DNA from: Cystobasidiomycetes sp. EMM_F5
Taxonomy: Eukaryota
Assembly (NCBI GenBank): GCA_051047955.1
Contig: JBPGPT010000025.1
Span: forward strand, 1 to 64,000
DNA: 64,000 bases
Direction: 5' to 3'
Below the pieces are notes generated by a model. It was not told where the DNA came from. It did no database searches and saw nothing but the letters and a program-made list of their open reading frames with translations. A program made the position numbers and the translations under genes. Positions 29,921-64,000 of the stretch are shown here, in pieces; the stretch's first letter is position 1, and each line of letters starts with the position of its first letter.

Positions 29921-30548
29921 GTCTGTGAATGTATCGGCCTATGTTTCGCGCCGCACTGTGACAGTGAATAATAATAATATGTAACTATCCAATTTCATAC
30001 ACCTAGACAGCAGTAGATTCCGTAAAGTCGTGGAATTCATACAGACAATGCGATGTGATTGGAACACGAGCTTTGACGGAGCTATATGCGTTTGAATTGC
30101 CAATCGCTTCCATTTGCATTCGTTGGGACATGCAATGTCTCAGTTGAAATTGCGGGGCCATTCGGTCGTGACCCGGAAAGATTAAACCACAACACAGCAA
30201 GCACACACCTACGTAATGACCCCATCGCATACAATACATCTCGGAAACAGTTGTTGTATAACATTGTAATGCTCCATTTGGCAACTATCGTAGCATCCTA
30301 GAGTACTATGGTACCTGCCCCGGAAAGTGTACAGCTGTGGCGGAGTCCGGGCGAGTGAATTGTCGACGACGTAGATGCGTTTGAATGGAATTGTATTGGA
30401 TTCTGCAATGTGCACAACAACCTCGCGGTGATGTGCTGACTGAATAAAACTGCACACTGCCAGCCCTTCAAATTCCACTATTCGCTTTTCTGTCCTATTG
30501 TTTTTGTCTGGCAAGAGCAAAAGGGCATTCGGCAGCCGCACTGCTGCG

Positions 30549-32049
30549 ATGGCTTATCGCAGGGTGTCGACCTTTAGCGATGCAGCTCAGGCGGCAGAGT
30601 CGTGGCTGCTGGGCGAGCGGACACCCAGGCCAGAGGATTGGAGTGTTGGGGATGCAAGGGAGGGCGCAGCTTGGGAAAGTCGAAAGGAAACACAGGTTGG
30701 GCGAGTATCAGCAGCAGCACGGTTCTTACATGGGTGTCTGCTACATCCCGCTCTCCAGGGCGCGCACTCGGGTAGCAAGATTCTGGCATCCGTCGTCGCA
30801 GTCTCTTGTGCACTCCTCTTTGGCACGGCTTTCTTCGCACTCAGCCCGTGGCATAGCTCAACGGCGCTCGTCAAGACGTAAGTTGCTACCTTGCTAGTCT
30901 TTCGTCTGTTTGCTGCATGCTGATGTGTATTGGTTTTGCCATCTCAGATTTCTATATCCCCGCCCGGAAGCCAGGGAAGCGATAACAACACTGCTGACGA
31001 GCCACGCCCTTCTCGCACCTTTGGTCACGGCCACAGTCGGACTGCGTGCGCACTCTCCGAACCGCGACTACATCATCATCGTCCCAGAGCAGTACAAGAA
31101 CGAAGACTCGTTTTCAAACACGTCGCTAAAGGTCATTGCAAAGTTGGGATGGAAGATAAAGTACGTACCACACATACCGATACCTGGAGATGTTCCGTGG
31201 CATTACCGAGACACCATGAACAAGTTGCACATCTGGTAAGTAGAGAAAAGTGCAAGAAGCTTCTTTCGAAACATCTCGACTGACCTCTACATTTGCGCTG
31301 CCGGCACCAGGAACATGACAGATTATGCAAGGATAGCCATGCTGGATCTGGACATTCTCATCAAGGGTTCTCTTGACGAGCCTTTCAATATCCTGCGAAA
31401 CAGCAATTATTCATTAGCAGGCGTTCGCGATACAGGATGGGCGATTGGTCGTGGATCAGAAGATATACGGGACCAGATCAATGCAGGAGGTACAGAAGTG
31501 ATGCTCTCCTCGTGCGCGGTCTCCTCGATGCTGAATATTCGCTCATATTGTCGCAGCAATGTGGGCGAGACCCAACCCGCAACTCTTTCGGGATCTGGTC
31601 GAATACTCTCGCAACGACAGCAACTACGATGTCCGCTATCCCGAGCAGGACATGCTGAGTCATTACTTTTGGTTGACGTGGCTCAACCTCAGTGCCGAGT
31701 ATGGCCTGCTGATTACGTACAAGTTGCTGCTCAAGGAGCGTTACGATCAATACTTTTCGAGTGCCAAAGGTGCCGTGGCTTTGCCCTCTCAAGCGCCTCT
31801 TTGTCAAGCCATACTGACTGCGTCTTCTACGCAGTTGTGCACTACGCCGGTACCTTCAAGCCGTGGCACACCTGCAGCGAAAGCTCCTCTCCGCTCGTGT
31901 GCGGTACGCAGATTGACGAGGGTGTCCGGTTGTGGCGCGCTGCCTTTGTCCGGGGTCTCCAAGAGTACAACCTCGACGTTCGAGACGTACTGCAAGGGCG
32001 ATCCCCGGCGGAGGCAGGCTACGACTGGCTCGATACAGTCGAAGCGTAG
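30549..32049 (+). CDS. GT8 (glycogenin-like) glycosyltransferase, type II membrane
   Basis: N-terminal TM ILASVVAVSCALLFGTAFFAL; MNKLHIW|NMTDYARIAMLDLDIL (DxD), INAG, EQDML, VVHYAGTFKPW. Confidence 0.88.
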
Positions 32050-32773
32050 TTTTATCATTTACGAAACATGGTCGAAATACATGGTCGGCATCTCGTTTAC
32101 GCGCATGGGATATACCGCGTAAAGCGGGAACGGGGGAATCAATACCCACATCAACATTAGCAGTCAGTCATTGGAAGGATAGAGTGGGTGTGTGTTGTAA
32201 ATGTTAACTTGGCAGTACGGCTCTACCCGGTGAAAGTAATAAAACCTTATTTCGGTTCCAAGCCTTAGCGACGACTGCAGTGTGTGTTGTGTTGATGCAC
32301 ATTTCGGACAAGTAATGACTGGATAATGCGCACTTTGACTGCTCGGAATAATGATACAATATCGGCACGATAAGGCTGCGTCGACAATGCATTTAAATCT
32401 GACAGCCATGCCAGACTCGCCTCGAAAACCAGCACGAGCATTAGCACAACACCACGCTGCACAGCATCGCAGTCCTGGTACACGGTCATCAACCTCAACC
32501 ACGCTCGCTGCTGGTTGCTGTCCGAGCTGAGCGGTGCCTCGCTCAAGGCTAGCATAGTTTGCCTGCAATCTGCTCCCGCCTCCCTCGCCGCTTTCGGGCA
32601 GCTACGCACTCGAGGCAATAAATAACAAGCTCTTCGAGGTTTATGCAGGCAAACATGCCTCGTGCGAGGTGCTGCTGATGCCCCGTTACTCTTTCTTGCG
32701 CCGCATCGCAGTTGGCTCCCTCCTTCCACACTATCAGTCACCTCCAGGATCGCCGTCCATATCAAAATCGACA

Positions 32774-34707
32774 ATGGGCATCAGACTGCGGTACAGCTCC
32801 GTAGTCATTGCTATTCTGCTATGCACGCTCCTCTTTGGCATGCCCAGGAGTGCCCCTCCCCCGTTGCACGATCAGAGCTGGCAGGTAGGTCTACTGCCCA
32901 GCTCGTCTGGCTTGTTGAGGAGGTACATTGCTGATTGAAGCGTCTGCCCCTCTCTCTTCTCCTGTGGATGTTGTATACATGTACAAATCGCAGTCTGATT
33001 TGGAGAGATCAATACGGACCCGCTCGACGAGCAACGTCACAAGCACCCTCTCGCTCAAGAATGACGGAGCAGACTTTACGCAGTATCTCGTCGAGTGGGA
33101 AAGTGAAGACGGAGCACGCAAAGCAGTAGACATTTGTCACTTTCGGAACTTTTGCTGGCAACCCGCCATCGACAATGACAATGACAGGGTCCGATACTGG
33201 CTCTTGGCCGACGTCGATCGTTCCTCTTTGGAAGAATCGGATTGGGATTTTAGACGCGCAATGCACTCGTGCTTTCAGACGACTTGGCAGCCATACGCTC
33301 GTTATGGACTCTTATCGCTCGCACATCATTCTGGACCCGTTCACTGGATCAAGGGCAACACCTTTGGATTCAAGAAAGAGGAGCCGGGGTAGGCAGAGCA
33401 TATCCGAATATTGATTGAATCCAGACAGGCTAATTCATATACGTCCCTTGTACGACATCTGCCCTCTAGAACTCATCCTGCTGCTTGGGGCCGCATCTGG
33501 TCGACATTCATGTCGGCCGTCATCCGTGGTGCAGAAGCGCTCGAGCAAAGTGGCATCACAGCGGACGCCTTCTTCAATCACTACCAGGTAAGGCGATCGA
33601 GCACGAAAAGGCTTCGAGAGAGTTTACGCAGACGGGTTGATACTCATTCAATGACTTTTTACTCGTAGCTATTTGAGCAAAACATGCCATTGAACGGCTG
33701 GACACAATTCATCATGCAAGCTTCGACGACGGCAGCGCGGCACAGCTTGCCCGGAGGGCGCTACGGCTCAGCCTTTCACCCGGAAGCTACCGTCACCCCA
33801 AGCAGTATTCATCGCCAGCATGCTGCACAATTTGCAACATGGGGCCAGGACGAAGATTTACATCTAACGGATAGTATGGTGTGCTTTGAAAATATGATTA
33901 CAACCAATACCACCCAACGAGATTACTATCAGAGCAAGATGGATGCGGCGTACTTCTCCAAGCTGGTAAGCTCACACGCGTTTGTGACAACGCTGTTTGT
34001 GGGGTTTGTACCTTTGACTCATCTGTCTACACGCACACAGGCGGTTGCATCGCTTGGACTGGAAGTAGACAAGCGTCGACCTTGCAATCCGCGGTTCCTC
34101 ACCATTGTTTATCTGGCTCGAGACCGACCAGTCTGGAATGAAATGGAGGTGCTACAGGCTCTGACGATACCAGGAATGGCCCCTCCTGTCATTGCAACGA
34201 TCGACGAGAATGTGCCCTACGATCACCAGGTCAAATTGTTCCATTCTGCCGACATTATCGTCTCTGTCCACGGCTCTCAGCTGCAGAATCAGCAATTCAT
34301 GCGTCCAGGATCCGTCATTATCGAACTCTTTCCCCGTTTGTATCATCACGATGAACAGAACCGTCTGGCAGCGTGGAACGACCTTGACTTGGTGCAACTC
34401 AACGGTACAAAGTTCCCGCCTAGAGCCCTTGTAGCGCTGGACGGACCAGATTACCTCACAACGTTAGACGAAGCCGAAGATTTTGCGACCAAATTCAACA
34501 TTGATCAGTGCATGAATGTCCTGCATTGCTAGTACGTAGAGTTGCGACATCAAGTCACACACTTCCCGTCTTTTGGCTGATGTTTTCCATATGATCACCA
34601 GTGAAACGGCGCGCTGGCTTGGAGTCTATGTCGACATTCCCGTTTTCAAGAAGGCGGTAGACAATGCCTTGAAACGTCTTACCAATACTCCTAATTGTGA
34701 ACCCTGA
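32774..34707 (+). CDS. GT61 (DUF563) glycosyltransferase, type II membrane
   Basis: N-terminal TM SSVVIAILLCTLLFGM; CHFRNFCW; HPAAW; QVKLFHSADIIVSVHGSQLQNQQFMRPGSVIIELFP. Confidence 0.82.
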
Positions 34708-35585: not shown

Positions 35586-37400
35586 ATGCCCCACGTCGGT
35601 CGAATTGGCCTCCACGATATTCGCATGGCCGTGCCGTCGAGTGCGACCCAGTCCGCCGGGAGGGCCATCAGCTTGCGCAGTCTGCTGGCAATCATGATTG
35701 TACTCGCGACTCTGCTGGTACTGCTCTCAAACTACTCGGCTGGTGTGGCTGCTGGCGACATGGACGCCGCAACAGATATGGCAAGTTATGCTAGGCTAGG
35801 AAAACTCATTAATACCTACATCCCATATCTTGGGAATAGCGGGGACGGCGATCCGGATGCGACAGAGACCTCGGTCATCCAGCAGACCGAGTTGTGTCCC
35901 AACTGCAACTGCTCCGTCCGGGGCGCCTTTACGGAGACACCAGTTTTCAGCGAAGCAGTTCCTTCACTGCGCAATGCCCGCACTCTGTCCCGCACGTCCT
36001 CTCGTCTCGTCAAGCGCTACCTGCTCCACCACATCCAGCTCTACTCTTGGTCTCACCCTATACACATCAGCGACGCAGTCACAGCAAAACTCCTCCAGTC
36101 TTGGTTTAGCTGCCCCGATACCCTATTAGCCTTCAATTTCAGCAACCTCATACTCAATAAGCCAACTGCGTACCCTTACACCAGAACAGGCTCGGGCGGA
36201 CGACTGACCGCCAACATCAGAAGGCTCAGGTATCTCAAGCGACATGCCGAGACGATACAAAAATTTCAGGAGCTAGTCAAAATCGAAGGCTACTACGATG
36301 GAACGCACTATTCGGAGAGGCAGCTCGTCTGGATCATCGTCGAAGACGGTGTGCGCATCGACCCGAGCATCAAAGAATTGCTCGATGCGTCCGGTCTAGG
36401 TGAGTGAAGCTTGCGGAGTGGAGCCTGGCAACTCGCTCACGCTTGTCCCTGCGCTTTGTCAGCGTATCTGTATATCGCTCACGGTGTGCTTCACTAAACA
36501 GGTTGCAACTGAGGACCGCTGAAACCCCTGATTTGTTTCTCCCATAAACAGGCCCGACACATCGATATGGCAATGCACAATGGCAGATTGCAGAGCGCGC
36601 TGTGCACGTCTTGCGCGATGCCTTCTTCGCGTACGCTGCCCTACGTAGCTCGTCTACAATCGAAGAGCCACTGACTCATGGCTCGCCTTTCGCACTAGGG
36701 ACGGTCCAGTGCTCAACATCGACGACGATAGTCGCATCTTGCCCGAACTCCTAAGTAGGGTGTGGAAAGTGCAAAAGGCAATCTTTTGGCAGGTGATTGG
36801 CAGTTACTGGTCGAGAATCGGATGTTTCGTTTCAAGCGATTGAGTCGTTTATTGTTTGACAGGTTGGAAACATGGGACGAAGCGGGCACCTGCACGAAGG
36901 ACCAATCTTTCGGCAGTCGAAAGTAGTCAACTGGATTATCGGCGGTATGCCACATAGGAAGTTTCCTGTGGACATGAATGGCTTTGCATACAATTCGTCT
37001 GCCATCGGTGACGGCCGAGCGGTCCATCCCCCTAAATACGTACCGCGAGATGATTTCGGCGGCGAGTCGTGAGTCAGATTGGCACAGACTTGGAGCATGG
37101 TGGAAGTTAGAGTCTGACGCATCGCGCACGGCTAGGGAATTCCTCGAGCAAATTTTAAAGTCTCGAGCAGAGGTGGAAGCTCTTTGCGAAGATTCGGCTA
37201 TCGAACCATGCCACCTCGCCTGGCACAAGTGTGTCTCGTCATCTAAGCCTTGACGGCAACAACCGAGCTGACTTTTCGTTCACGTCCTCTCTAGCTGGGT
37301 TGAGCACGAACAACCGAAGCGCGCGCAGCTAATGCCTATTGCGGCTCGCAACCGAAGACACAGCGCGCTTGCTGCTGAGTTGGGCCTAGGAGCGGCTTGA
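35586..37400 (+). CDS. GT43-like glycosyltransferase (glucuronosyl/xylosyltransferase family), type II membrane
   Basis: TM LLAIMIVLATLLVLL; PTAY...R...L; LVWIIVEDG; GNAQ; LNIDDDS (DxD); EGPIF; RKFPVDMNGFAYN; GGES|EFL; LAWH. Confidence 0.8.
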
Positions 37401-41426: not shown

Positions 41427-42880
41427 TCAAGTCTCATTGAGAATGTGCAGAACCTTTTCGCTAGACCCGGTCGCCGTCCAACTGTGGCTCCAGTATGTTA
41501 TAACGTATGCACCTGCTTCTCGAGCATTCAAATACGTCTTGCAGAGTTCGGGGTGGAATTTCGGATCCGTTGCACTGCAATATGGGTGTTTCCAAGTCTG
41601 GGTCCATGAAAATGGATAGATTACCGTTGAGGGAAGTATAGTGACGTAGAATTTGAGTGAGTTGCTGCCAGTATGAGCCTTCCGTGCGATCTCGACAGCT
41701 TTGTCTAGCAACTCATCCAAGCGTGTGTCGTGCCAGTCTCTGTAGGACAGCTCGGCATCTATCGTGTATACTATTGTCAGCATCTCGAGTGTGCATTTTC
41801 TGCTCTCGCTTCGACTTACTAACGGGATAGACGGGATCGTTCGTGGCTGGCTCACGGGAACTTGCTGCGTATTGCCATGCTCCCACCTGATTGCGTAATG
41901 CGATTGGGCCTGTTAGAACCTCTGCTACAGGGACCTCGGCGTCCGTTTTGCTGGCCTCGTAGTTGTCGAGCAGAACGAGACCTGTCAAGAGGTGAAAGGG
42001 GTGTCCGGGGGCTGATGCAAACCAGGCATTTGGGACTGAATGCTGAAAGCGTCGGTCGTCGCCCATCTGTCCCATGTATGTCCGAAGATGGATAACAGGG
42101 TGTTCGCCATCTGCCGAGAATGACATGGGCTTTGGTTCATGCGCATACTTCTCCCACATGCTGTCCAGTGGCCGTATGCAGTCGACGTCGAGGTCAGCGT
42201 AAACGCTGCAGTGTGTCATCATCAGCGGGAGCAGGCCGGGGGTGCTTCAGCTTCTTTGTCACAGTTTACGCAAAGTCTAATGCCTACCCTCCGAATGTGT
42301 ACAAGTACAGACCACGGACGGCATCTGCTCTCATGATTTCATTTGGTAAAGTGTCGTAAATCTCGAGCAACCACGGAAACTCTTGCTCGACAAGTGCGCG
42401 GTTGTCCTCATTGGTCCAAAGAACCCACTCCCAGTCTGGATGGTGTATCCGCCAGGTGTTGCTCCATTGCTCAAACTTGTGAGGCAGGGTTTGGGATTTC
42501 CAGCTCTGATGAATCAGTTTTGGAATAGTATCGTTTAGTGACTGCCTGGGTCGTGCTAAGAGGTCCCGAGGTCGGAGCGGCCGTGCTGCGGGGACGAGGA
42601 CTGCTACCGTCCCGGCTGCATTGGCGGCTTGCACACCACCTTTCGCCTTGGAAGAGATGGCTGCAACGTTGCCGAATTGCGCAAAGTATACGGCTATGCA
42701 AGCCACGACGGCCAGCGCAATCAGAAACCGTACGCGTATTGACCACTGCCTTGGAGCTGCGAGAAGATTGGCCATGTTTGCCCGGGGTGTCTTTAGTGTC
42801 GAAATGGGCGAGTCTACCGATTTCCGGTGCCGGAGGGACAGCGACGACGACGACAAGCGCCCCGACGATTGACTGTACAT
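41427..42880 (-). CDS. GT32 glycosyltransferase (Sur1/Och1-like DxD family), type II membrane
   Basis: TM FLIALAVVACIAVYFA; IPKLIHQSWK, LWTNEDNR, MRADAVRGLYLYTFGG|VYADLD, PNAWFASAPGHPF, TGPIAL, TYWSHSW. Alternative start at 42775. Confidence 0.9.
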
Positions 42881-43138
42881 GAACCTGTCTGCTGGGCAGT
42901 CGGCCAGCGTACAAGAGGCTTGTCGCAGTGCATCCCAACAAGTCAAACTAACGATCGAGTGCTAACTTAGCCCAGGGCAGTCAACTTTTCCAACCGCCTT
43001 CTTGATTTGGGACAGTTGCGATAAGTGAAGGTATACAGCGACATCGTCTGCAGGAATATCCCATCGCTGCGACGTGCCTGTCAATCGACGTCGTCAAACG
43101 CTGTCAGCGCATGGCCACACTCGCTGTCAGCTGTCACA

Positions 43139-45333
43139 ATGTCGGGTCTTCGCCGACGTTCGACGCGACTGGGCCTGTTTGACGAAGGGCAAGCAACCAT
43201 CGACAGCTCAAGCTCGAGCTCGCACGCAAAGACAGTCACACCGAGTAATGCGCAGCCAACACGGCCCCGCCCTCTCGACAGGAAACCAAGCTACCCGACT
43301 GGAAAGACCAGCAGTACAATATGGTCGCTGCTCTACAGGCTCGGAGCTGCTGTTCGCATGCGGCGGCTGAGTCTGCGGAGACTGACAAGGCTGCTCGTAT
43401 GGGCAATTCTCACCACGGTCATGGTAGTCGCAGCCTACGCTGTCCTTTCCAAACGCGCGGCGAGATCGCTGTCCTCGCAATACAGGAGCACGTCAATAGC
43501 GCAGACAGGCGTGCCGACGCAGTGGCTCAAGAGCTTGTCGCATGGTGAGTGTGGCCTCTGCCCAACGATTAGCATGGCTGATGAGTCTTGCTCGTCTTCA
43601 GCTGCTCTGAAGCGCCACGCCAGAGTCATTTCACGAATGAAGAAGCTATCACCTTCGGAATTCGATCTCGACTTCTGTCCTGGATACGGCCACGATGATC
43701 AGCTCAGCCAAAAGTATGGCAGGTCTGCACTCATCAGGACTCGTGCGCACTCCGGATCTTCAAAGCGAATACACAAATTAATAGCCAAAGCTCTCTCTGG
43801 AGAGCCCATTAGTCAGTTGCGATTCTGTCTAATGCGAGGGTAGATCACACCTTGTGCTGACGCTTGGTCTCATTAACGCTAGCTATATCGGTGCTGGGGG
43901 GTTCTGTTTCCGCATGTCGCGGGGATCCGATGAACCCAGAGTGTTATCCGCATCGCGTATTTAGCTGGTTGATGCACAACTTCCCTAACCAATATCATGA
44001 ACTGACAAACGGAGCCGGTAAGCGCATGACAGTTCTTCTCGGGAATCGGCTAAATCTTGATGAGGCAGAAATGCAAACCGATACCTCGTACTTTGCGTGT
44101 TGTGCGCAATGGCACCTGCCCGAGCTCACAGACCTGGTTATACTGGAGTTCAACAATGAGGACACCGAGTAAATCTGCATATTGGTTGTCTTATCGCCTC
44201 GCCAGATTACTGACGCACTTGATCATTGGCTTTCTGCGAATCGCAGGAACCTGGCTGCTGCTAAAAGCACGGAGATTCTGCTACGAACAATACTACAGCG
44301 ACCGGAAGCTCCAGCTGTACTTGTGCTCAGCACGTTTGCACCTCGAGTCCAGCAAGATTATGGTTATCTGGATGCGGAAGTCGCGCACAACGCCGTGGCC
44401 CGGTTCTATGATGTGCCGCACCTCAGTGTCAAGGGTCTGCTCTATGAAGACTTTCTACACAATTCTAGCAGGGTCATGGATACCCATTTCGTCGACCCCG
44501 TTTTGATGAACGAATCTGGTCACACCGCTTTAGCGGACATCATCATCTCCTACCTGCAAAGTGAAATTTGCTCGTTTATGGAATCTGTCTCTTTGACCCA
44601 GGAGCCAATCACCGCCGATGCCTCCTCATCAGCGAAAGCGGCTCGTCCAATTGCTGTTGCTGATGAAGAAGTCGAGGGGCCCCCGGCTCGTTTCAGAGGT
44701 CAGATATTTCACCTCGACCAGGATCTTGCCGCAGGCTCTGGGTACGACAAAATCAAGCGGAGCGAGAATCTCTGGCGCCGCACAGGTATTCCGCCGTTTC
44801 TCATGAACGACAAGCCACACGAGCTAGCGCGCTTTAGGGATGTCAAACCTTACTGCATCACTGCAAACAACCACCTGACCCCACTTCCACGCAAAGCTTT
44901 TAGAGGATCCGGTTGGTTGCAAAAAGAGGGATCGCGAGGCAACAAGAAGGGAAGCTGGTACTCTACCAAACCCGGCAGTCGTCTACGAATACCCGTCGAA
45001 GTATCCGCTGGAGATATCTTTGTTCAATATTTGCGACCGCCTCTTGGCGAAGGGCACGGTCGCGCTCGATGCTGGGTAGATGACAACGAACGTAACGCAG
45101 TCGAGCTCGTGGCTGGCCCCCCTGACGCTGAGCCCGAAATCAGGTGAGGCAATGCGGATGTATTCAGGCAAGCTACTACTGCTGACTGACTTGTTGGTCG
45201 GCGTGATATACACAGAGTGGTACAAATCGATCTGAATGTCGGTAAAGGTTCTCACTTTGTTATGTGCGAGCTGTTTGGGGAGGATGCTACTGTGAAGCAG
45301 CCGATGAATATATACGGAGTCTTCTGCACTTAG
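43139..45333 (+). CDS. CAP64/CAS3-like capsule-associated SGNH-fold protein 1, type II membrane
   Basis: TM LLVWAILTTVMVVAAYAVL; KYGRSALIRTRAHSGSSKRI; SVLGGSVSAC; HELTNGA..TDTSYF; DLVILEF; ARFYDVPHLS; GRARCWVDDN. Confidence 0.82.
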
Positions 45334-45644
45334 TATGAAGTAATGTGTCGGTTAATTTTGGCCATCAGTCTCATGCAGTGTATAGTCTAGTATCGTCGTT
45401 ACGCATTCGCAATTCCTCCCATAGAAGTACATCAACAAATGGATAAAAGCCGCCGCACGCGAACGGGCTACGGGGCACTGATACAGAATGCCGGCATCCC
45501 AAGGTACTTCTGCCCGAAACTTGAAAGGTTTTGCTTGACACGACCGACGACCAAGCGTGGCCGTGTCATCTAAAGGCCGGTTGTCGTAAATGCCAGATTC
45601 ACAATCTTCAATGCCCAAACCGTTTGATCATCTGCTAGGACCGA

Positions 45645-47226
45645 CTAGCTAGCTATCGGTCGCCTGGGCGTAAACATGGGTCGCCGTTGTACTAGAGACT
45701 TGGTGGCATCTGGCGTCACAGATGGCGTGAATACGACGATGTTCGGACCTTTGCTTCGGGAAGCAGTAGACGTGGCTGCAGTGAGAAGCACCAAATTTGA
45801 CTGAGGAGCGGTGAGCGTCACTTGCACGATTGCTGGTATCCGGGTAGGCGTGAGGAAAGATGGCGCTGACGATATCACTCGCGACGCGCTAGTTGTTGAA
45901 CTGCTGGTGGAGGCTATGCTCAAGGAGGTGACAGCCGTTGCAGTCGATGGGACGAAAATGTCATTCTGTGCGCCATTAGAGAAACCCCAGTCCTCGTTGT
46001 ATAGCGGAGGCCTCTACAGACAGATGCACCACGTTCAGAAACTTCGATTTGCAACGAAACACGGACAAGACCTCGCTTACTGCCCAGTAGCCGTCCCACG
46101 GAATGTTGTAGTCTGAGGTAACCACCGCCTGCCAGACCATGGGCTGCTTCGCTCCTTGGACGCATGCTGAAGAATCGTTGCTGCAGAGCTTAGGAGGGAC
46201 AGATGTGGCCAGTTGTTTCGTGGGATTACCCCCAACTATGTTACAATCAAATCCAACCTGTTTGAAAGCCCGTTCAGCTACTTGCGTGCTTAAGAATCCG
46301 TTGCAAAGTGAGCTTATCTAACCTGATACATTTCTTGCCAGTAGCCTTCCGCAGACAAATTATCGTGATACCACGACCACGTGCAGATACATTTACCTCC
46401 AGGACACGGTGGCATGTCTGCCGGAATCTGATAATCCGTTTCACGGAACCACACGCATGTTCTGTTTGTTGAAAAGACGGTATAGTCGGCGTTACGAGTA
46501 TCTACAGCGTCTGCGTTCTTGTACGTTATGGCAAGTGCGCAGCCAGCTGCGTCGGATATGTTTCCAGCATGCAGCGGTCCATTCGACCATCCGATTGAAG
46601 GATCTCCGTAAGTAGACACGTCCTTTCCGAATGTCGCATCGTATGTAGGATTAAGCCAGCACGGCACATCTTTGTAAGCCGCGAGGCCTTCGGGAAAGTT
46701 TGTATAAATGGTGCCTTCTTTATTGCACGAGTGTTGAAGGGTGAGAGTTTGCCTGGGAGCCATTGATGAGTCAGTATGAGCGCTCTCTACATCGGATGCG
46801 GCTGCACTGAAGCGTGTGCCTCACCCAGCAGTAATCTGCATAACGGTATTAGGCTTGGCGCCTGCGTTGGAAAGATGTCAGCCATTGTTGTTTGGACATT
46901 TCTCGACAACGTCGGATCCCAATTTACGAGCACAGCCATGGAACCACCATTCCTCAAAGTTCAGACCGTCTTTCTGCCTTAATGGCTGAACGATGAGATC
47001 TGTGAGGACGGGTTGATTGTAGTAGCCATCCGGGGAACTGCAATTCGAAGCGTTGAAGCCGTATACGGACGGGTGCCACAGGGCCTAAGCAGCAGCCAAG
47101 GGATATTCCAGAATTCATCGAGCCGTATCAGTACTGTTTCGTGTCTCGTTGACCATCATGTTGACTGACCACATGGGCAGCCACGGAGCGCGCCAAAGTC
47201 GCAAGCACTACGATAGCCTCGAGCAT
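45645..47226 (-). CDS. AA14 lytic polysaccharide monooxygenase with Ser/Thr-rich tail
   Basis: Signal MLEAIVVLATLARSVAA then mature HV|ALWHPSVYGFN; EEWWFHG; CNK; GPLHAG..GCALAITYK; CVW; MPPCPGGKCICTWSWYH; EMYQ. His1, second His and Tyr of the copper site appear present. Confidence 0.88.
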
Positions 47227-47842: not shown

Positions 47843-49952
47843 ATGCCGCCAAATCCAACGACAACGACAGCCATCCGGCGACGTAGCGTCCAGCCTGACA
47901 AGTCGTACGAGGACGAGCAGCTCGGCAAACCAGCTGCAATCAACCAGAAAGAGCAGCAGCGTCCTATCGAGCGCCATCCCGTATCAGGCAAGAGTGGCAG
48001 CAGCAGCAGCAGGAGCGATAGCCAGGGACCCTCGGTATGGCTTTCAAAGTTCTTTCAGCCCGTGAGATCCAACTGGCGACTGTGGAGCTCGTTGGCTTTC
48101 GTCGCGGCGCTCCTCGTAATTCTGGCACAGGTTGTTGCTCCCGACGATGTCCTCCAGGTCATTTCCACCCTCCCAAAGTCGTTTGCAGGCCGTCAGCACC
48201 CAATACCGCGCAACGCATCATCCTCGACCGCTACAAATTGGTACCATCGCCCTTTCTTAGAGTATCGAGATCCATTCGCAAGGCCCCCAAAGCCACGGAC
48301 GAGCAGGTCGCGGCTCTTGTTTCTGCACGAGGCTGGCGGTAAGCCGTACAACGCTAGAATACTTCAGCGGGTGCTGATGAGTACGTCCCGTTTCTGATCA
48401 GCTTTCAATGAGGCGCTCGACGTCTATAGTAGGTAGTCTATGATTTCCAGCTGTGGACGGAATGTAATGTACTATGCACACAGGAGCCAGTTTGGCACAC
48501 CCGCATATTGCAGGAGAGCTGTGGAGCGCAGGTACGTGTTCTTTTACCAGTCTCATTTGATGCAAGGCCGCATTGAGGTGGCTCACCATCAATCTTGGTT
48601 CTCCAGACTCTGCTGGGTATAACGAAGAACTCGACATCGTGACCAACGTCGAGCGCAAGTGGGGCTGCGGTCATTTCGATGTGGTCTATATGCTCCACTC
48701 CCTCCAGACCCAATCGGAAAACGGCAATGATTGGAGTCAATCGCTCACTCGGCCATTTGGTTGCGGTACGATACTAGCGGCAAAGGTGGGAGATTGCAGC
48801 GCAGATGAATGCATCGGCAATCCATCTCACTGGTATAGAAATGTAACGGCTGTCCGGTATGGTACAGTTCATAATGCGACTACAGCGCCCAGCGAATATG
48901 GCTTAACTAACAAGCATTCAATAGGCACGGACCGGATCTCACACAAGTTTTCCCCTATCACAAGCTCCTCGCACAGCGCAAGACCTTGATCAGCGAGTCA
49001 GACAAGCCTGCTTATCAGCTGTATGCTCAAATAACGGATTCAGCACATGCTGGCGACTATCACCCTCCTGTACGTGCATCGAGCGTAGTGAGCATGCTGT
49101 CGGAGGCTTATAGGTATATGCAGAGTCGGTGGGCAGACAAGACCAATGACGCAACGACATTTGACAGCATTGGCTTCGCGGACACTCGGTATGCGCTGCG
49201 GTAAGCTCAGTGAAGTTTGACGACCTCGGCAACGTTCTGAGTATTTCCGGGTGTGCAGAAATACAATAGCAAACGCGATTGAGAGAAAGAAGACCTTCGT
49301 CAAGTTCTTCAACGTCTCCGATGATCAAGCCGCGGACAACGCGTCGAGCACAGGTCAATCAAGCACAAAGCGAGACTCAGATACTGCGTCGATTTATCGC
49401 AATGCAAAGATTTGTGTTATTGACGGATCAAACGAAAAACGCTTTCTGCGCGCGCATGCGCAAGCAAGTCTTTCTGGGTAAGTCACTTAGTTGTGATTGA
49501 GGTAAGAAAGCAATTGACAAACGACACATTCCGGTAGATGCGTGATTGCTGGTCAAGTGCCCAGTGATCACGGCGGCGGCATGCGAGAGCACATGATTGT
49601 GCTCGACTCAGCTTGGCCAATCGCGGTAAGCCTGGAAGAGATGGTGATCATTCGGTACGCTGACTTCACTGCCTGATATCGCCAGAAAATCAATAAAGTC
49701 CTCAAATCTGCCCTGGCAGATCCCGTTTCGCTGCGAAGAAAGGCTTCCTTCATGTACGCTTACGCTCAACAGCACCTGACCTCGATTCGTGAGCTGGACA
49801 CGCTGCTCGACATTGTGAATCGTTACCGTGCAGGAGAGCGTGGATACATCACGACCGCGGACTTCAATTCCGTATGCCAATCGGTGAGAACGCAGGATGG
49901 GTATCCGAGCGCACAATCGAATTGGTGCTCTGGACAAACCTTTGCGACTTGA
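47843..49952 (+). CDS. Uncharacterized glycosyltransferase-like type II membrane protein, paralog 1
   Basis: TM LAFVAALLVILAQVV; shares LLFL, WGCGHFDV, KVGDC, QITDSA, YALR, KICVIDGS, CVIAG, DPVSLRRKA, RQHLT-like motif, YRAGERGY with paralogs 2 and 3. Confidence 0.7.
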
Positions 49953-50749
49953 CCCCTTCCGACCAACCGATCGAATATCGTTCTGCTGCTCCCGAATATG
50001 CGCAATGCTATTTTGACGTTTTTCGGCTGCATCGCCCCACACGCGCCTCGAACGGGCCGACCAAGCCGGCGTTCCTCAACCGCCCTGCCACGAGAAGGAC
50101 GCGGAAGCAGACATAGCAGAGCGCCGACAGTCCACCACACTCAAAGCAGCTGCACAAGAAATGCCGCGATAACGCTTGCGCGTTTTGCTTCGCATGGTCT
50201 CGGCTTCACACGCCTACCGTCGCTTCTGTTGGTAATTGCTAGTGTAGATCTATCAATGTCAAGCAGGCCTACCTACACTTGACAGCTATGTGCCAGCAAT
50301 ATAATTGCTGGCTGTTCGTACAGCTCAGTATTCCTGTCGATGTCTTGACTGCCGGAGCGCTGGACTACAGGCTTTCTCTCCGACTCTAATATACCTTGAC
50401 TGTGTTCGCTGATGCCAGGGCTACCATTCACGCAACGGACTGCCAGATCATATGCTGACGCATTGAGCAACCGCTTCGTGGAGAATTGAAGTCGCTCCTG
50501 CTGCTCGCAGTAACGGACGCCAAATTGGAGACCTCACGGCAGCTTTGGCGTCGAGGCTGGACGCATAGGTAAGTTTGGATTAGAGACGCGACGTGTGCGA
50601 TTTGTCTATGCCCATTCAGATAGAAAAATCTTCGCCACTGCACCAAGGTGGTATGTAACGCCAATTCGGTCTCAACCTTCGCATATGCTCCGTTTGCATT
50701 TCCGCTAGATGCCGAGCAAAAACAGGTGCACGCGGGACACATGCGCAAG

Positions 50750-52847
50750 TCAGTGACATGCAATGCACTTGGAGGGTGCAGCAGTATACGCACGAGGATC
50801 CTCAGCGTCTCTGGGATAGTAATCCCTACATCTCGAGGTAAAGTCTGTTGTCGTCATGTATCCTCGATCTCCTGCCCGATACCTATCGACTACATCCAAC
50901 ATGGTATCCAGTTCACCAATAGAGGTGAAATGCTGGCGTGCGTATGCATACATAAAGGACGCCTTTCGCTGCAACTCTACCGGATCGGCTAAAGCATCAG
51001 ACAGCACGCGATTAATTTGCTGGAAGATGACGATCAGAACGAGCTTTTGGGCTGCTCTCTCATGCGCACATACCTCTATAGACCACAACGGGTCCAGTTC
51101 GATTGTATTATTCCGTAAAATACGTTCGTGCTCTGTGGGCAATTCTCCGGCTATAACGCAACTAATGACCCTTATAAGCGAAACTCTGAATCCGCCAACT
51201 AGAACATACTCACCCTGTAAGCGCTGCTTGTGCGTACTTGCGCACGGCCTTCATTTGTACAGAGCCATCGAAGACGCAAATCTTGGTTTCTCGCATACTT
51301 TTTGCGAAAGTCACATCGTTTGAATGCATAAAATCGAATGGCGGAGTATCTATCCTATCTGGAGCCCCAGCTGGAAGCTGCACAACCTCTTCGTACGTCA
51401 ATGCTGGCAAGGGATTTGTACTTCGAAATGGCTCGATGAAGGTTTGACCATCCTCGATAGCATCTGCGATCATCATCCTACGAGGTCGAATGAGTCAGTC
51501 TTCAGCTCGATCCAGAATCACAAATTTGCCCACCTCAAAGGATAATACGCGTCAGCCTTGCCAAAGAGTCGAACGTCGACAGTCTTATCGTTCCATTTTT
51601 GCTTTTTCCAATCTTCAGTCGCCACACAAATTGACATCGCTCAAGGTACTCACCGGTGGGTAGTAGTTGGTAGTGTGAGCCGAGTCTGGTACGTGAGCGT
51701 ATAGTTGGAAGGGATAATTGGATACATCGCCGTATTTGTGATGCCGTAACGCAACCAATTTCTCGTACGCGAAAACCTCCGTTAACTCGAAACCGTACCT
51801 AGCAGAAGAAAACCGCACACATTTGCAATGTGATTGCTTTACGTGTGCCTGTGCTCACCGGACAATAGTCACGTTTCCAAGATACGGAAAGTGCTCGTCG
51901 GGACATTGTCCGATATTGCAATCTCCAGTCTTGACGACAAAGACCGTGTCGCATTGAAACGATCTCTGATCCGTCACATCCCACCATTCGACAGTGCCGT
52001 CTGGACTGCCGAAAATGCCACTCCTCTCGTAGGATGTAAAGACGATGTCAAAGAATCCGCAACCGTACTTTTCCTCGATATTGTCGGTGAAGTGTTTCTG
52101 TGAGCTGAACCCGCTGTAGTCTGTTCAAGCACCATAGATCAGCAATGGCAGGGCGGGGCAGGCTATATATACCCTTACGAGGTCCCCACATGTGCGCCTC
52201 TACATTTGGGTGCTCCATTGCTGCCTCTAGCAAGCGCAGAGGAAAAGGAAGATGAGACGTGTCAAGCAAGGCCGTCTCTGTCGGACTGACTGTATACATC
52301 AATGAGGAATGGGTCTGATGTTTGTACCGCCTCTGAGGAGATAGGATTATAGCCATGGCTGGCTTAGCGCAGTAGTGTGACACTATGTGTCAGCTCGACG
52401 CTCACTCTTGTAATCGTGCAGGAAAAGCACCCGAATTGGCTTTGGTCGGTCCTTTACTGGATACTCGAAAGGGCTGTTCAATTCGAGAAACGGCTGCTCA
52501 AACCAGGGTCGACTGGCTAGAGTGGATGGAACGACAGCAGGACAGTCCGGAAAGGCTACCCCCGTCGATTTTGTCGAGACTGAAAAGCATCCCAGGACTG
52601 CCCCGATGATAAGCGTCAACAGGATTCGGGCAACCTGGCCAATCTTGCGGTGGTGAGATTTGAGGGAAGCCAGGCCAGCTCCGGTTGATCTGACGGCGTC
52701 CTCCTCTGCGCGCCTGTGCAACGTCGTCCTTCTTTGAGTGAGACCACGCCCGACTTCGCTCTCATTGTACGTGTTTGCATCAGAGGACCGGCGTCGCAGT
52801 CCGGCTGAAGGGAACTGCCCGCCGTTGACCTGGAGGGACCCAGGCAT
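50750..52847 (-). CDS. Uncharacterized glycosyltransferase-like type II membrane protein, paralog 2
   Basis: TM ILLTLIIGAVLGCF; VLFLHD, MWGP, KYGCGFFD, HVPDSA, YYPLR, MRETKICVFDGS, RKYAQAALTG, LPTEHE, DPVELQRKA, YRAGDRGY. Confidence 0.72.
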
Positions 52848-53008
52848 GATATTGCAGCATCGAATAGGGTAAAAGCAAAGCACAAGGCAGCTTTCTTTGA
52901 CGTTTACTGCTGGATTATATTGGTGATCGAGGATTACCCTTGAACAATAGCTACCGCCTGCCGTGTATGGCTTTTACTCTCGCCAACAACCCCACCTGCA
53001 CACCGTGA

Positions 53009-55225
53009 ATGCTGTCGCTCATCGACGAGCGCAAATCTCGCTCAAAGCCAGCCAGCCGGCATGCCGCAGCCAACCGGTCGTGGAGAGCCCGCCTGGCAGC
53101 TCTGGCGGGGGTCGTTGGGGCAGCGTATCTCTTCCGCGACGTCTGGAGCTACGCTTCCCTCCAGTCGTCGGTAGCCCACTCGTCTGCCCTGCCCGCGACA
53201 CCGTGGTACAAGAACGAGTCCCTCTTCTCCGACCCGTTCAAGTACACCCCCAAGGACTACGCCAAGCCGGTTCGAATTCTCTTTCTCGCAGACCTCGAAG
53301 GTGAGCGAGCCTGCATTCTCTGTAGGGTCCGAGTACGAATGCCGACGTATCCCTCCTGGCCGAATAAACCCCAGACTCCATTGTCCGGCACGACACATTC
53401 TACTACGAAGTCTATGGTGAGCTTTTTGCCATCAGAACGTCGAGTTACGTTGACTCTTACACCACCCACTTCACACAGAGGCTGCACGACGGCATCCAGG
53501 AGTCTTGCCGGAGTTCTGGGGACCGGGTATGTGGAGCCGTTTCACTCGTCTCTTCATTCAACGAAAAGCAAGCTCAATCTCCTTTACCCTTTCTGCAACA
53601 GGCTACGGAGGCTACGACATCACTCGTGATTGGAACGAAAACATAGCCCGCAAATATGGATGCGGCTACTTTGACATCCTGTACACTCACTACGGTCTCA
53701 ACAAGATTTGGGACGAGGATGCGAGGACGCCCAGCCTCGACTGCGACACCCTACTCATAGTAAAGGGTGGAGACTGTGGAGGAGGCGTGCAACAATGCGT
53801 CCGCGATTCTTATCTCCATCACGGTAACATCACCATTGCCAGGTAGACTAGACATTCTCCATGGTATACGTCGACTCAGCTTACCATCAACCCGCCAGAT
53901 ACGCTCACGAGCTCTTCGAGATGTACACGTATCCAAACATACTGAGCATCAGAGAGAGCAAATACAATAATCGCCAAGACATGCAGTATCACTTGTTTGG
54001 TCACATTCCAGATACCGCAAACGAGTGGGACTTTTATCCCGTGGTAATACTCAAGCTTCATACCATACTAGCGAATATTGTCGACTGATGAGCACGTTCA
54101 CCTCAGGCTGACTTTGAAGAGAAAAGCGTAGACGCCATGCTCTTCGGGGCAAGTCATGGTTATTACCCGCTCAGGTAAGTTGTGCGGGTACATCACTCAA
54201 TGAGCGTGATTGACTCGTGGCCCGTAGGACAACTGTCGCTCTTGCTATAGGGGCTGGCAAAACCTTCATTGAGCCTCAACCACCTGCAAGTGCGTCAAGC
54301 GCATCTTATCGGCAACGCTTTTGGCTAATGACGCATCGTGTAGCACACATTGATGAGACTCTGCCAATGTACGATCAGGTTCGAGCGCATCCTCCGAACA
54401 CATTGCAATGGGATGACAGTATACATGACGTCCAAGTGAGTCGTGATGAATGCGTAAAAGGTTATGCTTACCGCTAAAACCAACTTTCAGCGGGATATCA
54501 TGAAGAGTTTTGCAGGAGCGATGCGCAACACTAAGATATGCGTCTTTGATGGTTCCATCGAGCACAAGGCGGTGCGCAAATTCGCACAAGCGATGCTTTC
54601 TGGGTGCGTCCGCGCCCCTCTGCCAGTGTTTCGTGCGATTCGAGCAGTCTGACAATCCGTCTCAGTTGTGTCATTGCCAGCGATCTGCCGACCGAGCACG
54701 ATTGGATCCTGAAAGATAATATTATAGAGCTTGATCTGTACGCTACTATCGAGGTAAATAAGCTGTTCATGTGCACGATGCTCGTCACTTCGCTGAAACA
54801 AATATAGGATATCAATCGAGCAATATCGACAGCCCTACAAGATCCAGTTGAGCTGCAGCGGAAAGCAGCCACCTTACTCCAGTACGCGCGGCAGCATCTG
54901 ACCGGCACCAGGGAGATTGACCTCGTGATCGAGATGGCGCGGAGGTAGGTTATATTTTGGAATGGTCGATAGAAATCCGCTCATGCAGCCGATGCAATCA
55001 TAGATATCGGCAAGGAGAGCGAGGTTATACATTTCCAACGAGCTTCACTTCTCGCTGTCGGCATTACAATGACTGGGACCCTGAAGGGCCTACGCCGCCA
55101 TGGTAAGTACCTCTGGCATACAGTATATAGCCATACTTATTCACGTCATTCATAAATACAGGTGTACCGGCCAGCACTTCCAATTACAGCAAGGATGGAA
55201 CAGGCAGCCGCCACAAAGAGGCTGA
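53009..55225 (+). CDS. Uncharacterized glycosyltransferase-like type II membrane protein, paralog 3
   Basis: TM LAALAGVVGAAYLF; ILFLAD, FWGPG, KYGCGYFDI, KGGDC, HIPDTA, GYYPLR, MRNTKICVFDGS, RKFAQAMLSG, LPTEHD, DPVELQRKA, YRQGERGY. Confidence 0.72.
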
Positions 55226-55598: not shown

Positions 55599-55653
55599 AA
55601 GTGCGTTACTCGTTGTAGTAGTATAAAGTGCGTTACTCGTTGTAGTAGTATAA
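55599..55653. repeat. 27-bp perfect tandem duplication
   Basis: AAGTGCGTTACTCGTTGTAGTAGTATA occurs twice in tandem. Confidence 0.9.
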
Positions 55654-56062
55654 TCTGCTGTTCTATGGTACAAGTTATGTATAAGTCTAAGTTGCCCATA
55701 ACGGGAAGACCCTTTGCAGCATTTACGAGGTCATTGAGGAATCGCAGTTTCAGTCAAAATTCAATCACAGCAGCCATCGACATGTAAAGATGGCAGATCA
55801 TCACTGCACCGAATTTGCGCTCACTTAAGACAATGTTCCGAAATCCGTCTGATTCGCACATTAGATTCCGACGATAGGAACAATACGTCTCAGCGACTCG
55901 GAGCTATCAGAGTAGTCGATAAATATACGTTGCTAAAGAAAGGTGGGTAAATCTCGAAAATCAAGCCTCTAAGGGAGTCGGGGATTGGATCGCAAAAATG
56001 CGGAGACACTCGCCAGAAAAACAAACTGGATTAGCGCAAGCGCAGGCTCCCTTAAACCCGAC

Positions 56063-56160
56063 GGGTATATGGCTCAGTGGTAGCGCGTCTGCTTCGCATG
56101 ACTTCATCTAATGACTCACGCAATTGCTGAAGGTCAACGGTTCGATCCCGTTTATATCCA
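56063..56160 (+). tRNA. tRNA-Ala(CGC) with a 26-nt intron (56099-56124)
   Basis: Acceptor stem GGGTATA/TATATCC with G3:U70; D-arm TGGCTCAGTGGTAGCGC; anticodon loop TT-CGC-A; T-arm AACGG TTCGATC CCGTT; TTTTT terminator at 56171. Confidence 0.92.
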
Positions 56161-59400: not shown

Positions 59401-60030
59401 GGGTATATGGGCGAGTATTGCGATAAAAAAAGCTCGGCCAGCTATGGACGTCCAAAGGTCACCGGGTGGCTTTTCCGTCTCAGACTATCCCTGTCTTGCT
59501 GAAGGGTGCAGCTAGCGACGTCTGCAGCTGCGCAGATGTTGGACGTGTAACATCGTAAGGAACAAGCGCAACCTCTGCCGGCTGTCCTAATTAACGGGCT
59601 TACAATCTGCTTCCGGGAGATGCGGTAATTCATGCATCGCGGATCAGTTGCCCCCAATAATGTATAAATCGAACAGATCTCCGGACAAATCAGACGGTAA
59701 TTCATGATATCGTATGCGCATCGATGTCGTTAGTTGTCAGTAGCAAAACTCTGCAGAATTTTCATCAGCATCATCAGCAGCAGCGACGCGTCACAATTTT
59801 GTGATTTTCAGCAGTACCGTTGCCTGTAAAAGCAAAGAAAGCAGGCGGATTAGTGCAAACTGTGCATGAAGAATGATATGCCCCCGTTGTATCGTCTGCG
59901 TTGCGAATGAAACACCAGTCTGGCCATTGGACAGCCCTTTGAAAAATAATACTTGCCTTCAACCCGACCAAAACAGACCCAGCCCGAGCCAAAGCCCAGC
60001 AGTCGAGTCTGACTCGCCTAGCCCTCTGAA

Positions 60031-62372: not shown

Positions 62373-62941
62373 GATTGAAAATCAAGCGCAGTGGCTTGTT
62401 GCACTGGCCGCTCAGCGCCGCCGTGGAGATGGCAAACGCAACCTCAATGCCTGCATTGCGTGTATGCCGCGAAGCACTGCATGTGCTCGGTCGTGTGGCA
62501 CCGACTCTAGCTCAAGCTCCTGCTGCATACGCTGCGCGCACACATGGATTGGGATATTTCGTGCAGGTACGCGTGCAGGCATGCATGCTCTGAACCAGCT
62601 GCGTTGGCTGTCTGCAACTCGGCAGCGAGTCAAGTGGAAGTGACACTACGACTGGCGGGCTGCGGTCAGAGTCATTACTGGGATGTCTTGCATACTGCCA
62701 TCGGATGCATATCTTCCAGAGTGGATTGGATTACCGCGGGCGCTACCTGCTGCGTTACCAATGGTGCAGAGTAGGCTTACTGTGTGACGCAGCCTTGTCT
62801 CGGTCGTCTATTGTAAAATGTTGTAATTCAATAACAATTTCGACTGTTTGAACTCTCATCTTTACCTCTTGCAAACCAACAATCAGAGTATCCAGGCCAT
62901 TCGATGCGGCCAGCCAGCAGCTGCGAGTGACTGTTGTCCGC

Positions 62942-64000
62942 ATGTCGTCTATCCGAAGGAGATCAACCCAGGGCATCCTGCGCGACCTGCCCGCCAGCAA
63001 CCGAGACGGTAACAACGATAGCAATGGCTTCCTCAGAGTGCCCGGCGACAAGCCAAGGGCGACTACGCAGCGGCCAGTCACTCGTCCACGGCGACGCTTC
63101 CACAGCGACAACGACCAGTCATGGCTGGGCCAGTCGATGCAAAAGCTCAGCAGTATCTTTGGACGGCGGAGGATCAGTCAGCGCGGATGGGCAAAGCTCC
63201 TCTTCTACCTCTTCGTCCTCGTCGCTGCCGTCTGGCTCATCGTCACCCTCGTCGCAGACCCCCCAGACCCCTTCCCCAGCACACTGCCCAATTCAGCAGA
63301 GGCAGTCAAAGAGGCTATCGGTCCGGAGCGCTGGCTGAAGAATCTATCGAAAAGTGCACCGTCTCCCTGCGAGTCTCCTTCATATCGCTTACTTGGACTT
63401 GTCCTTCTCCAGAAGCAAGGGCCAGGCATGCCCAAGTCTTGCAGAGCAAGAAGAGACTGGCAGACATCTACAAATCGATGAATGTATGCGGACCAAACGA
63501 CGTCTTGAGCAAGATTTACGGCAACAGCGCATTGACTAGCACTCGTGCGCACATTGGGTCATCTACTCGGATCCAACGCGTTATCCAAAAAGCTTTTAGC
63601 GGACAACCGCTGTGTAAGCGGATGGAAGTCATGGTGCTTGTGCAGTCATGTAGGCTGACAGTGTTCATGTGTTTGACCCGCCGACTCTCGCAGCCATTGC
63701 GTTCCTGGGCGGCTCAATCTCTGCGTGCCACGGCTTACACGGCGAGGCGGCACATCCTTTGGGCAATCCACTGTCTCCGCAAGGTTTTCCACACCGGATA
63801 TACAGCTGGCTTACGCAAACTTTTCCAAATGAAGACCATACGGTGACCAACGGGGCAGGTGTGTCGTCGAATTTGCCTCTTACTGTGTGTATTTTCGTGT
63901 AGCTGACAGTGTGCTACGCCAATGATGCCAGAACTCAAAACGGATACCACATACTTTGCCTACTGCTCTCATATGCATTTGCCCGACCATGTGGACCTCG
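62942..64000 (+). CDS. CAP64/CAS3-like SGNH-fold protein 2, partial (continues past window end)
   Basis: TM LLFYLFVLVAAVWLIVTLV; KIYGNSALTSTRAHIGSSTRIQRVIQKA; AFLGGSISACHG; HTVTNGA|..TDTTYFAYC..HLPDHVDL. Confidence 0.82.

Follow-up and report, generated by a model that had tools for sequence, protein, structure and literature searches.

Three adjacent paralogs in a cystobasidiomycete yeast as probable Golgi-type GT-B glycosyltransferases of an uncharacterised family

A stretch of 64,000 nucleotides from Cystobasidiomycetes sp. EMM_F5 (assembly GCA_051047955.1, contig JBPGPT010000025.1, positions 1 to 64,000 of the forward strand; hereafter the window) carries three neighbouring genes, A, B and C, in the order +, -, +, between positions 47843 and 55225, the limits given in a preliminary description of this DNA. 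These genes are real, intact and old, and probably work like Golgi glycosyltransferases (GTs) of the GT-B fold. They belong to an uncharacterised, mostly eukaryotic family, for which profile matches and predicted models favour a place within the GT-B clan close to CgeB/Glyco_trans_1_2. The gene models and their main features are as follows.

47843..49952, + strand: gene A, 9 exons, 538 amino acids (aa), family profile E 3e-71; exons 47843-48338, 48402-48428, 48484-48531, 48607-48856, 48925-49069, 49124-49200, 49259-49477, 49538-49625, 49686-49952
48080..48136, + strand: predicted signal-anchor helix of gene A, aa 80-98, Kyte-Doolittle (KD) 19-residue mean 2.33
52847..50616, - strand: gene B, 10 exons, 557 aa, family profile E 1.5e-105; exons 52847-52406, 52332-52291, 52226-52179, 52120-51859, 51798-51654, 51601-51534, 51477-51214, 51161-51074, 51019-50794, 50704-50616
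52578..52634, - strand: predicted signal-anchor helix of gene B, aa 72-90, KD 19-residue mean 2.28
52848..53008, no strand: 161-bp gap from the start codon of B to that of C, the two genes being divergent
53009..55225, + strand: gene C, 12 exons, 514 aa, family profile E 8e-118; exons 53009-53300, 53375-53416, 53479-53526, 53602-53842, 53899-54043, 54107-54174, 54228-54435, 54491-54603, 54666-54753, 54808-54944, 55004-55102, 55162-55225
53093..53137, + strand: weak hydrophobic anchor of gene C, aa 29-43, KD 15-residue mean 1.67 and 19-residue mean 1.26

The models were picked by hand from a three-frame reading guided by splice consensus and homology, and their exon junctions are predictions. 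Splicing, which the preliminary description had proposed as a check, gave an open frame for each gene, with GT-AG introns of 52-89 nt throughout, the window DNA being intron-rich. The least certain junction is the acceptor of exon 2 in gene A, an exon of 27 nt as against 42 nt in B and C. If the last intron of gene B (89 nt) were left unspliced, the model would have 9 exons and 542 aa and end at 50750; its removal brings back a conserved C-terminal Trp-Cys and, by eye, matches a phase-1 intron in a further paralog, D. All nine motifs that had been named for the three genes are present in the models of A, B and C, and each protein has one hydrophobic segment where a single N-terminal transmembrane helix had been proposed. 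By hydropathy, the type II layout (single N-terminal anchor, stem and luminal domain) is thus found in A-C, weakly in C. The gap between B and C may serve as a shared bidirectional promoter.

The word 'triplet', used earlier for A-C, holds in so far as three paralogs are adjacent, but the set is not closed: a fourth paralog lies just past the window, and five further members are found on other contigs, so that the genome has at least nine. The members outside the window are the following.

~65.6-68.0 kb of the same contig (G000:C168), ~11 kb past C: paralog D, to which A-C are 41-57% identical, family profile E between 3e-71 and 8e-118
contig C13: member E, the ortholog by tree of CNAG_02319 of Cryptococcus neoformans H99
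contig C35, ~235.8-237.5 kb (L015:3774-5500), - strand: member F, degenerate, keeping the C-terminal helices and the middle region
G000:C232:459-462 kb (L045): two tandem distant members, keeping HPGY and Glu
G000:C2:460-461 kb (L046): one distant member, keeping HPGY and Glu

For member F, the family profile found nothing corresponding to the donor-binding segment, while one piece of the three distant members matches PF13524 (E 0.0013). A GT43 match was observed ~20 kb from the distant member on C2. Paralog D is contained in a database gene model, P0001 (1215 aa, hypothetical protein, Cystobasidiomycetes yeast), whose junction pattern is the same by eye and which fuses D to an upstream SGNH-like gene (window 62852-64000 and on to ~68 kb). 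Because D has its own hydrophobic anchor, this fusion is probably an annotation error.

The fold was predicted with AlphaFold for the luminal part of D and for CNAG_02319, which is annotated as 'hypothetical', and was searched with Foldseek and VIA. Both models (D: predicted local distance difference test, pLDDT, 80.7, and predicted template-modelling score 0.84; CNAG_02319: pLDDT 82.0) consist of two facing Rossmann-like domains and a C-terminal helix pair, that is, the GT-B fold that had been suspected from the motifs. Against the PDB, Foldseek returned 230 matches to the D model at E<=0.001, and among the matches listed all were glycosyltransferases. With VIA, the D model was closest to PimA (Z 19.5, root-mean-square deviation (rmsd) 3.8, 293 residues aligned) and T4 alpha-glucosyltransferase (AGT; Z 19.2, rmsd 3.7, 309 aligned), with other GT4 enzymes next and essentially tied with these two; EXT1 (Z 13.3, rmsd 6.1) and POGLUT2 (Z 13.0, rmsd 4.9) scored lower. 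The CNAG_02319 model matched T4 AGT at Z 20.2 (rmsd 3.8, 302 aligned). Among viral models (BFVD), the best match was a CgeB-like GT (E 4e-12, template-modelling scores 0.52/0.66). The sequence identity of D to its solved fold matches is at most 14%, and a predicted fold of this kind points to the enzyme class, not to the donor or the stereochemistry.

With regard to the spread of the family, a first search with a five-row profile of the exon-7 region (8000 scored candidates) gave 31 proteins from Cryptococcus, Kwoniella, Mrakia, Vanrija, Cutaneotrichosporon, a Cyphobasidiales metagenome-assembled genome (MAG) and chytrids. The spliced A-C proteins matched 33 of 33 database proteins, nearly all across most of the luminal domain (P0002 partly), and with a larger profile, 1028 representatives were reached at E<=0.001, of which 103 passed 1e-30. 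Taxa among 20 of the 150 listed profile matches include Phaffia, Chytriomyces, Blyttiomyces, Gonapodya and Melampsora; Melampsora larici-populina, Cronartium and a Gloeochaete transcript supplied further members. A mapping of taxonomic distribution had been suggested earlier, and full-length homologs are now seen in Tremellomycetes, rusts and chytrids. PF13524 (Glyco_trans_1_2) was matched by 38 of 56 relatives at E<=0.01, which, together with the CgeB-like top viral fold match, agrees with the closeness to Glyco_trans_1_2/CgeB that the preliminary description had read from the C-terminal block.

The same description had stated that no CAZy family could be assigned, and no full-length match to a characterised family was found in Pfam, NCBIfam or PDB sequences. 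Several homologs are automatically named 'CAP10 domain' in UniRef, a label that is not supported because the GT90 domain PF05686 matched just one of 56 members, weakly (E 0.0094), and none of 29 at E<=0.1. GT47 is likewise not supported, PF03016 being matched by one of 56 members (E 0.0048) and by none of the window pieces. The signature of GT4 is E-X7-E before the last conserved strand; when mapped by motif position, A-E have Gln at the second of these positions and lack a Glu eight residues before it. In NCBIfam, one weak HpsP match was obtained among 56 members, and the ESM Atlas offered only leads below 0.9 (PF13524, GT90, RXYLT1_C and GT47). No relatives were recovered in a single-piece search with the C-terminal frame of B (572 candidates) or among 151 metagenome pattern matches; within the genome, the paralogs are detectable exon by exon. 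No numbered family could be assigned to A-C, and the comparisons with GT4, GT47 and GT90 were negative.

Candidate functional residues were counted in 72 non-window homologs, picked as near full-length from the profile searches. The acidic residue of GD/EC, where the fourth strand of the N-terminal domain ends, occurs in 70 of the 72, as does the Arg of YPxR, and both are kept in A-E. The Lys of RK (69/72) is kept in B-E and replaced by Ala413 in A. At the helix position after RK, Glu is found in 57 homologs and Gln in 12; the Gln noted earlier in A-C is real and present in A-E, but it is not special to the three genes, being common to most basidiomycete members. The GD/EC acid, YPxR and RK motifs are kept in B, C and D, and A is without the Lys and the Pro. 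Gene B keeps Asp244, Arg336 and Lys416, and gene C keeps Asp185, Arg279 and Lys378.

Several observations weigh against the assignment of A-C as glycosyltransferases of this family. The fold is transferred to them from the model of D, and GT-B folds are also found in non-transferases, an epimerase matching the D model at Z 13.4 in VIA. None of 15 unspliced window pieces had a convincing Pfam family, the matches being at chance level, and the same holds for P0001 and CNAG_02319; PF13524 was matched neither by P0001 at E<=1 nor by CNAG_02319 at E<=0.01. In the PDB sequence search, the best match reached E 0.0068 with the larger profile, and there was none with the earlier profile. A set of 16 neighbour queries gave no match to the glycan-gene neighbours at any of 25 metagenome loci of the family. 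For no family member could an activity, a donor or a cellular location be found; a literature search, mostly without subscription papers, found no main-text mention of CNAG_02319 or of ortholog identifiers. In the part of the Boucher preprint that was available, the CNAG_02319 knockout scores -0.28 for mean mouse fitness (range -1.23 to 0.72 in five mice), the cut-off being -2.0 (PMC11526942). Finally, the His of an HPG(Y) motif, found in 64 of the 72 homologs and kept in E and CNAG_02319, is gone in A-D.

The loss of HPG is a more telling change than Gln for Glu. The motif is missing in A-D and in five of five rust-type proteins, and its loss marks an A-D/rust subfamily. In the CNAG_02319 model it follows the second strand of the C-terminal domain, a position that would put the loop at the donor side of the GT-B fold. 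In GT-B sialyltransferases, according to the portion of the source available, the His of an HP motif contacts the donor phosphate, its loss lowers activity to below 10%, and an acidic motif of the N-terminal domain is essential (PMC2169525). This parallel is a likeness by position only, and homology is not claimed. Gene A shows further changes, with Pro replaced by Ala in YPxR and Gly by Ser in WGP; relative to the 72 homologs, it has lost a Lys (present in 69), a Pro (70), two Gly (71 each) and another His (62). With these additional losses of near-invariant residues, A is the foremost candidate for an enzyme of weak or no activity.

The A, B and C proteins are mutually 35-45% identical, with pairwise BLASTP scores of 323, 223 and 358 bits, as compared with no more than 22-24 bits when each was shuffled 40 times. 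All eight introns of A have counterparts in B and C that agree in alignment column and in phase, whereas 100,000 random intron placements never gave more than one shared position. Similarity at the DNA level is almost lost: there is none between A and C, one patch of 127 nt (74%) between A and B, and two short patches between B and C. A careful tree was built from 25 chosen rows with a chytrid outgroup, F, which is degenerate, and the distant members G-I being set aside, after a quick tree of 47 rows. In this tree, E groups with Tremellomycete genes (96/97), and A-D form a separate clade with rust proteins (100/99), inside which A, B and D stand together (100/100) and C joins rust-type proteins (99/98). 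Two Melampsora proteins share 62% identity with gene C, as against 35-45% for A, B and D, and A is the most diverged paralog, with the longest branch (1.11). A clade of A-D only was rejected by the approximately unbiased test (p-AU 0.006), which was framed after the quick tree had been seen. Because C groups with rust proteins and the A-D-only clade is rejected, the split of C from A/B/D probably predates that of this yeast's lineage from the rusts. The old duplications proposed in the preliminary description are thus supported by the tree and the eight shared introns, and a recent local triplication is ruled out by the grouping of C with rust-type proteins.

A general scheme of action can be proposed. 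A, B and C would be type II membrane GT-B glycosyltransferases of the Golgi type, whose luminal C-terminal domain would bind a nucleotide-sugar via the YPxR Arg, the two residues of RK and the Gln or Glu in the helix that follows, while the N-terminal domain would hold a glycan acceptor beside the GDC acid, a near-invariant residue that sits where the fourth strand ends. One sugar would be added, without a DXD or metal motif, to a polysaccharide of the cell surface or the extracellular space, in whose making the neighbouring GT8, GT32, GT43, GT61 and SGNH-type proteins would share. As the HPG loop lies, by position, at the donor site, the A-D/rust subfamily probably uses another donor, or has other kinetics, than CNAG_02319. 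B and C are likely to be active, and A may be weak or non-catalytic; the addition of sugars to a surface polysaccharide would be the likeliest role of the three. The chances of a retaining and an inverting mechanism seem about even, the former being favoured by the closest solved folds (GT4 and T4 AGT) and the latter by the candidate Asp base and the HP motif, by analogy with other GT-B enzymes.

Among related systems, CNAG_02319 and its single-copy Tremellomycete orthologs (OrthoMCL OG6_201431) resemble A-D at 28-40% over the catalytic region and share the type II layout, the GT-B model and the Gln in the RKYAQ helix. However, their ortholog in this yeast is E, and A-D with the rust proteins form a sister subfamily without HPG and without the His of GDCH. 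CgeB/YkvP-like GTs (PF13524) have a similar compact C-terminal Rossmann domain, whereas the present family is membrane-anchored, eukaryotic and cysteine-rich, has Gln for Glu, and is 12-14% identical in its fold matches. It was reported, in the available part of one source, that CgeB of Bacillus subtilis weakly modifies CgeA in vitro in a UDP-glucose-dependent manner, the donor being unresolved there (PMC13577073). The closest solved folds are those of the retaining GT4 enzymes (PimA, PimB', MshA, BshA and AviGT4) and T4 AGT (Z 18-20 over ~290-310 residues), from which the family differs in its 9-14% identity, the lack of E-X7-E and the luminal type II topology. GT47 exostosins and GT90 enzymes (Cap10/Cxt1) likewise have a GT-B fold and a type II layout and help to build polysaccharides in the Golgi, but PF03016 and PF05686 are each matched weakly by one of 56 members (E 0.005 and 0.009). 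GT139, with Cgm1 and Cgm2 of C. neoformans, is a recent fungal Golgi GT family that came from a screen of unclassified genes (PMC12493134, available in part). By that description, GT139 seems not to apply, Cgm1/Cgm2 being other genes (CNAG_02199 and CNAG_00129), GT32-related and modelled with Mn2+, as against the GT-B fold of the present family.

The surroundings of A-C, in the stretch from ~28 to ~68 kb, include the following genes.

28026-29920, + strand: multi-exon endo-beta-1,2-glucanase homolog at the left edge of the stretch (PDB 6imu, E 4e-31; no Pfam match)
30444..32122, + strand: GT8-like type II gene (PF01501, E 1.3e-6 on one piece)
32780..34532, + strand: GT61 gene (PF04577; sole match found in the genome)
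35586..37279, + strand: GT43-like gene, limits approximate (PF03360, E 1.6e-7 at 36833-37018)
~37690-39480: DNA primase small-subunit gene, ~8 kb from A
41427..42961, - strand: DXD/GT32-type gene (PF04488; 1 of 12 genome matches)
43025..45147, + strand: SGNH-like type II protein gene, one of 3 genome copies, 2 of them in the stretch
~45600-46820, - strand: AA14 lytic polysaccharide monooxygenase gene, directly upstream of A and divergent from it (PF22810, E 6e-29)
~58100-59500, - strand: multi-exon gene with an acidic E-D-D-x-D motif (no Pfam match on two pieces)
62852..64000, + strand: 5' part of a second SGNH-like gene, followed by D outside the window (matches GDSL-like 6hfz, E 0.0025)

The SGNH-like type II proteins are presumably Cap64/Cas3-like, and the E-D-D-x-D gene we take to resemble GT25-type enzymes. 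The GT8-like gene is absent from the four genome-wide GT8 matches. Housekeeping genes (primase, flavin oxidase and ABC ATPase) are interspersed with the glycan genes, and the long frames of the following 72-92 kb also look like housekeeping genes by eye. The stretch of ~40 kb amounts to 0.2% of the 18.3 Mb genome. The 25 metagenome loci all score best to CNAG_02319, and only six are longer than 10 kb; glycan-gene linkage was seen at none. The earlier placing of A-C at the 'core of the cluster' stands as a hypothesis. In two of the 25 (L040:8777-9168 and L041:14243-14634, near-identical contigs), a primase small-subunit gene lies ~3.5 kb from the family gene, and this proximity is possibly old microsynteny or chance.

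The most serious competing view accepts the enzymes as real and takes their co-location to be the outcome of tandem duplication and chance or rearrangement, with general substrates such as O- or N-glycans or glycosphingolipids; we rate it somewhat short of even. The interspersed primase, flavin oxidase and ABC ATPase genes, the absence of glycan-gene neighbours at 25 of 25 homolog loci, and the five members on other contigs speak for it, whereas the same ~40 kb holds the sole GT61 match, two of three SGNH-like copies and four of nine family members beside GT8, GT32, GT43, AA14 and the beta-1,2-glucanase homolog, and C is not a recent local copy (p-AU 0.006 against an A-D-only clade). It is unlikely that the HPG-less proteins, or at least A, are dead or nearly so and assist other Golgi transferases by binding glycans or serving as scaffolds. 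The missing His of A-D, the further losses and long branch (1.11) of A, a degenerate copy (F) that still looks intact in its C-terminal part and, by analogy, the sialyltransferases with activity below 10% after loss of the HP His (PMC2169525, available in part) would fit such a role; on the other hand, B, C, D and the rust proteins all retain the acid of GDC, the Arg of YPxR and both RK residues, and the 62% identity of C to rust proteins spans these sites.

Very unlikely, in our judgement, is a GT-B fold with another chemistry, such as sugar-phosphate, pyruvyl or acyl transfer or epimerisation. It would account for the missing GT4-type glutamate pair, the identity of at most 14% to solved matches and the non-GT GT-B proteins lower in the fold lists, but the first 23 VIA rows hold nothing but glycosyltransferases and GT-like proteins, relatives carry PF13524, and the topology is type II. 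That A-C are pseudogenes, or their similarity an artefact of hand-picked exons, is largely refuted and hardly credible: the junctions were indeed chosen by hand from sequence alone, yet the frames are open, the introns canonical and their positions shared, the independent database model of D has the same junction pattern by eye, and the paralogs could already be detected by single exons. A broader reading that joins several of these strands, and that we consider doubtful, is that an uncatalogued eukaryotic GT family has been missed by CAZy-based screens, even those of C. neoformans, that its Pucciniomycotina branch swapped the HPG loop and gained a new donor, and that a capsule-like polysaccharide specific to the lineage is made by the ~40 kb stretch as a true biosynthetic cluster, comprising four GT-B genes (A as a non-catalytic partner), GT8, GT32, GT43, GT61, two SGNH-type modifiers, AA14 and the beta-1,2-glucanase homolog.

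To our knowledge, some linkages of fungal capsule and wall polysaccharides are still without an assigned enzyme. As predicted GTs sitting among polysaccharide-building genes, A-C are good candidates for unknown steps in fungal surface glycan synthesis, although the GT-B fold is common, which limits their importance. The analysis supplies a family and its fold, together with residues that are candidates for catalysis and a natural contrast between the presence and absence of HPG. New fungal GT families now come from screens of unclassified GT genes, such as that of GT139; in the available part of that paper, CNAG_02319 is not listed and stands outside the four CAZy 'GTnc' genes of H99 that were screened (PMC12493134). 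It was also reported, in the part of PMC11526942 available, that CNAG_02319 was deleted in strain CK0998, is absent from the cluster (module) table, has no predicted domain in the genome-wide table, and was detected by one peptide in 2 of 16 proteomic samples. The existing deletion strain makes function directly testable; because the knockout was unimpaired in the pooled mouse screen, the ortholog of E is unlikely to be the maker of an essential capsule backbone. A Cyphobasidium MAG has been predicted to make an acidic polysaccharide like glucuronoxylomannan (GXM), according to the portion of the source available (PMC8355462), and since cystobasidiomycete yeasts are predicted to secrete such GXM-like polysaccharides, a gene stretch that may build one is useful.

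Some other features of the window were observed in passing. At 518-6483 (- strand) lies a very large, nearly intron-free gene resembling NFX1-type helicases (AAA_11/AAA_12, CCCH and RZ zinc fingers), which is carried by two overlapping long frames and is in this respect unlike its intron-rich neighbours. At ~56063-56160 (+ strand) there is, by eye, a tRNA-like and apparently intron-bearing sequence, for which ARAGORN made no call. Downstream of gene C, at 55600-55654, an exact tandem duplication of ~25 bp is seen by eye.

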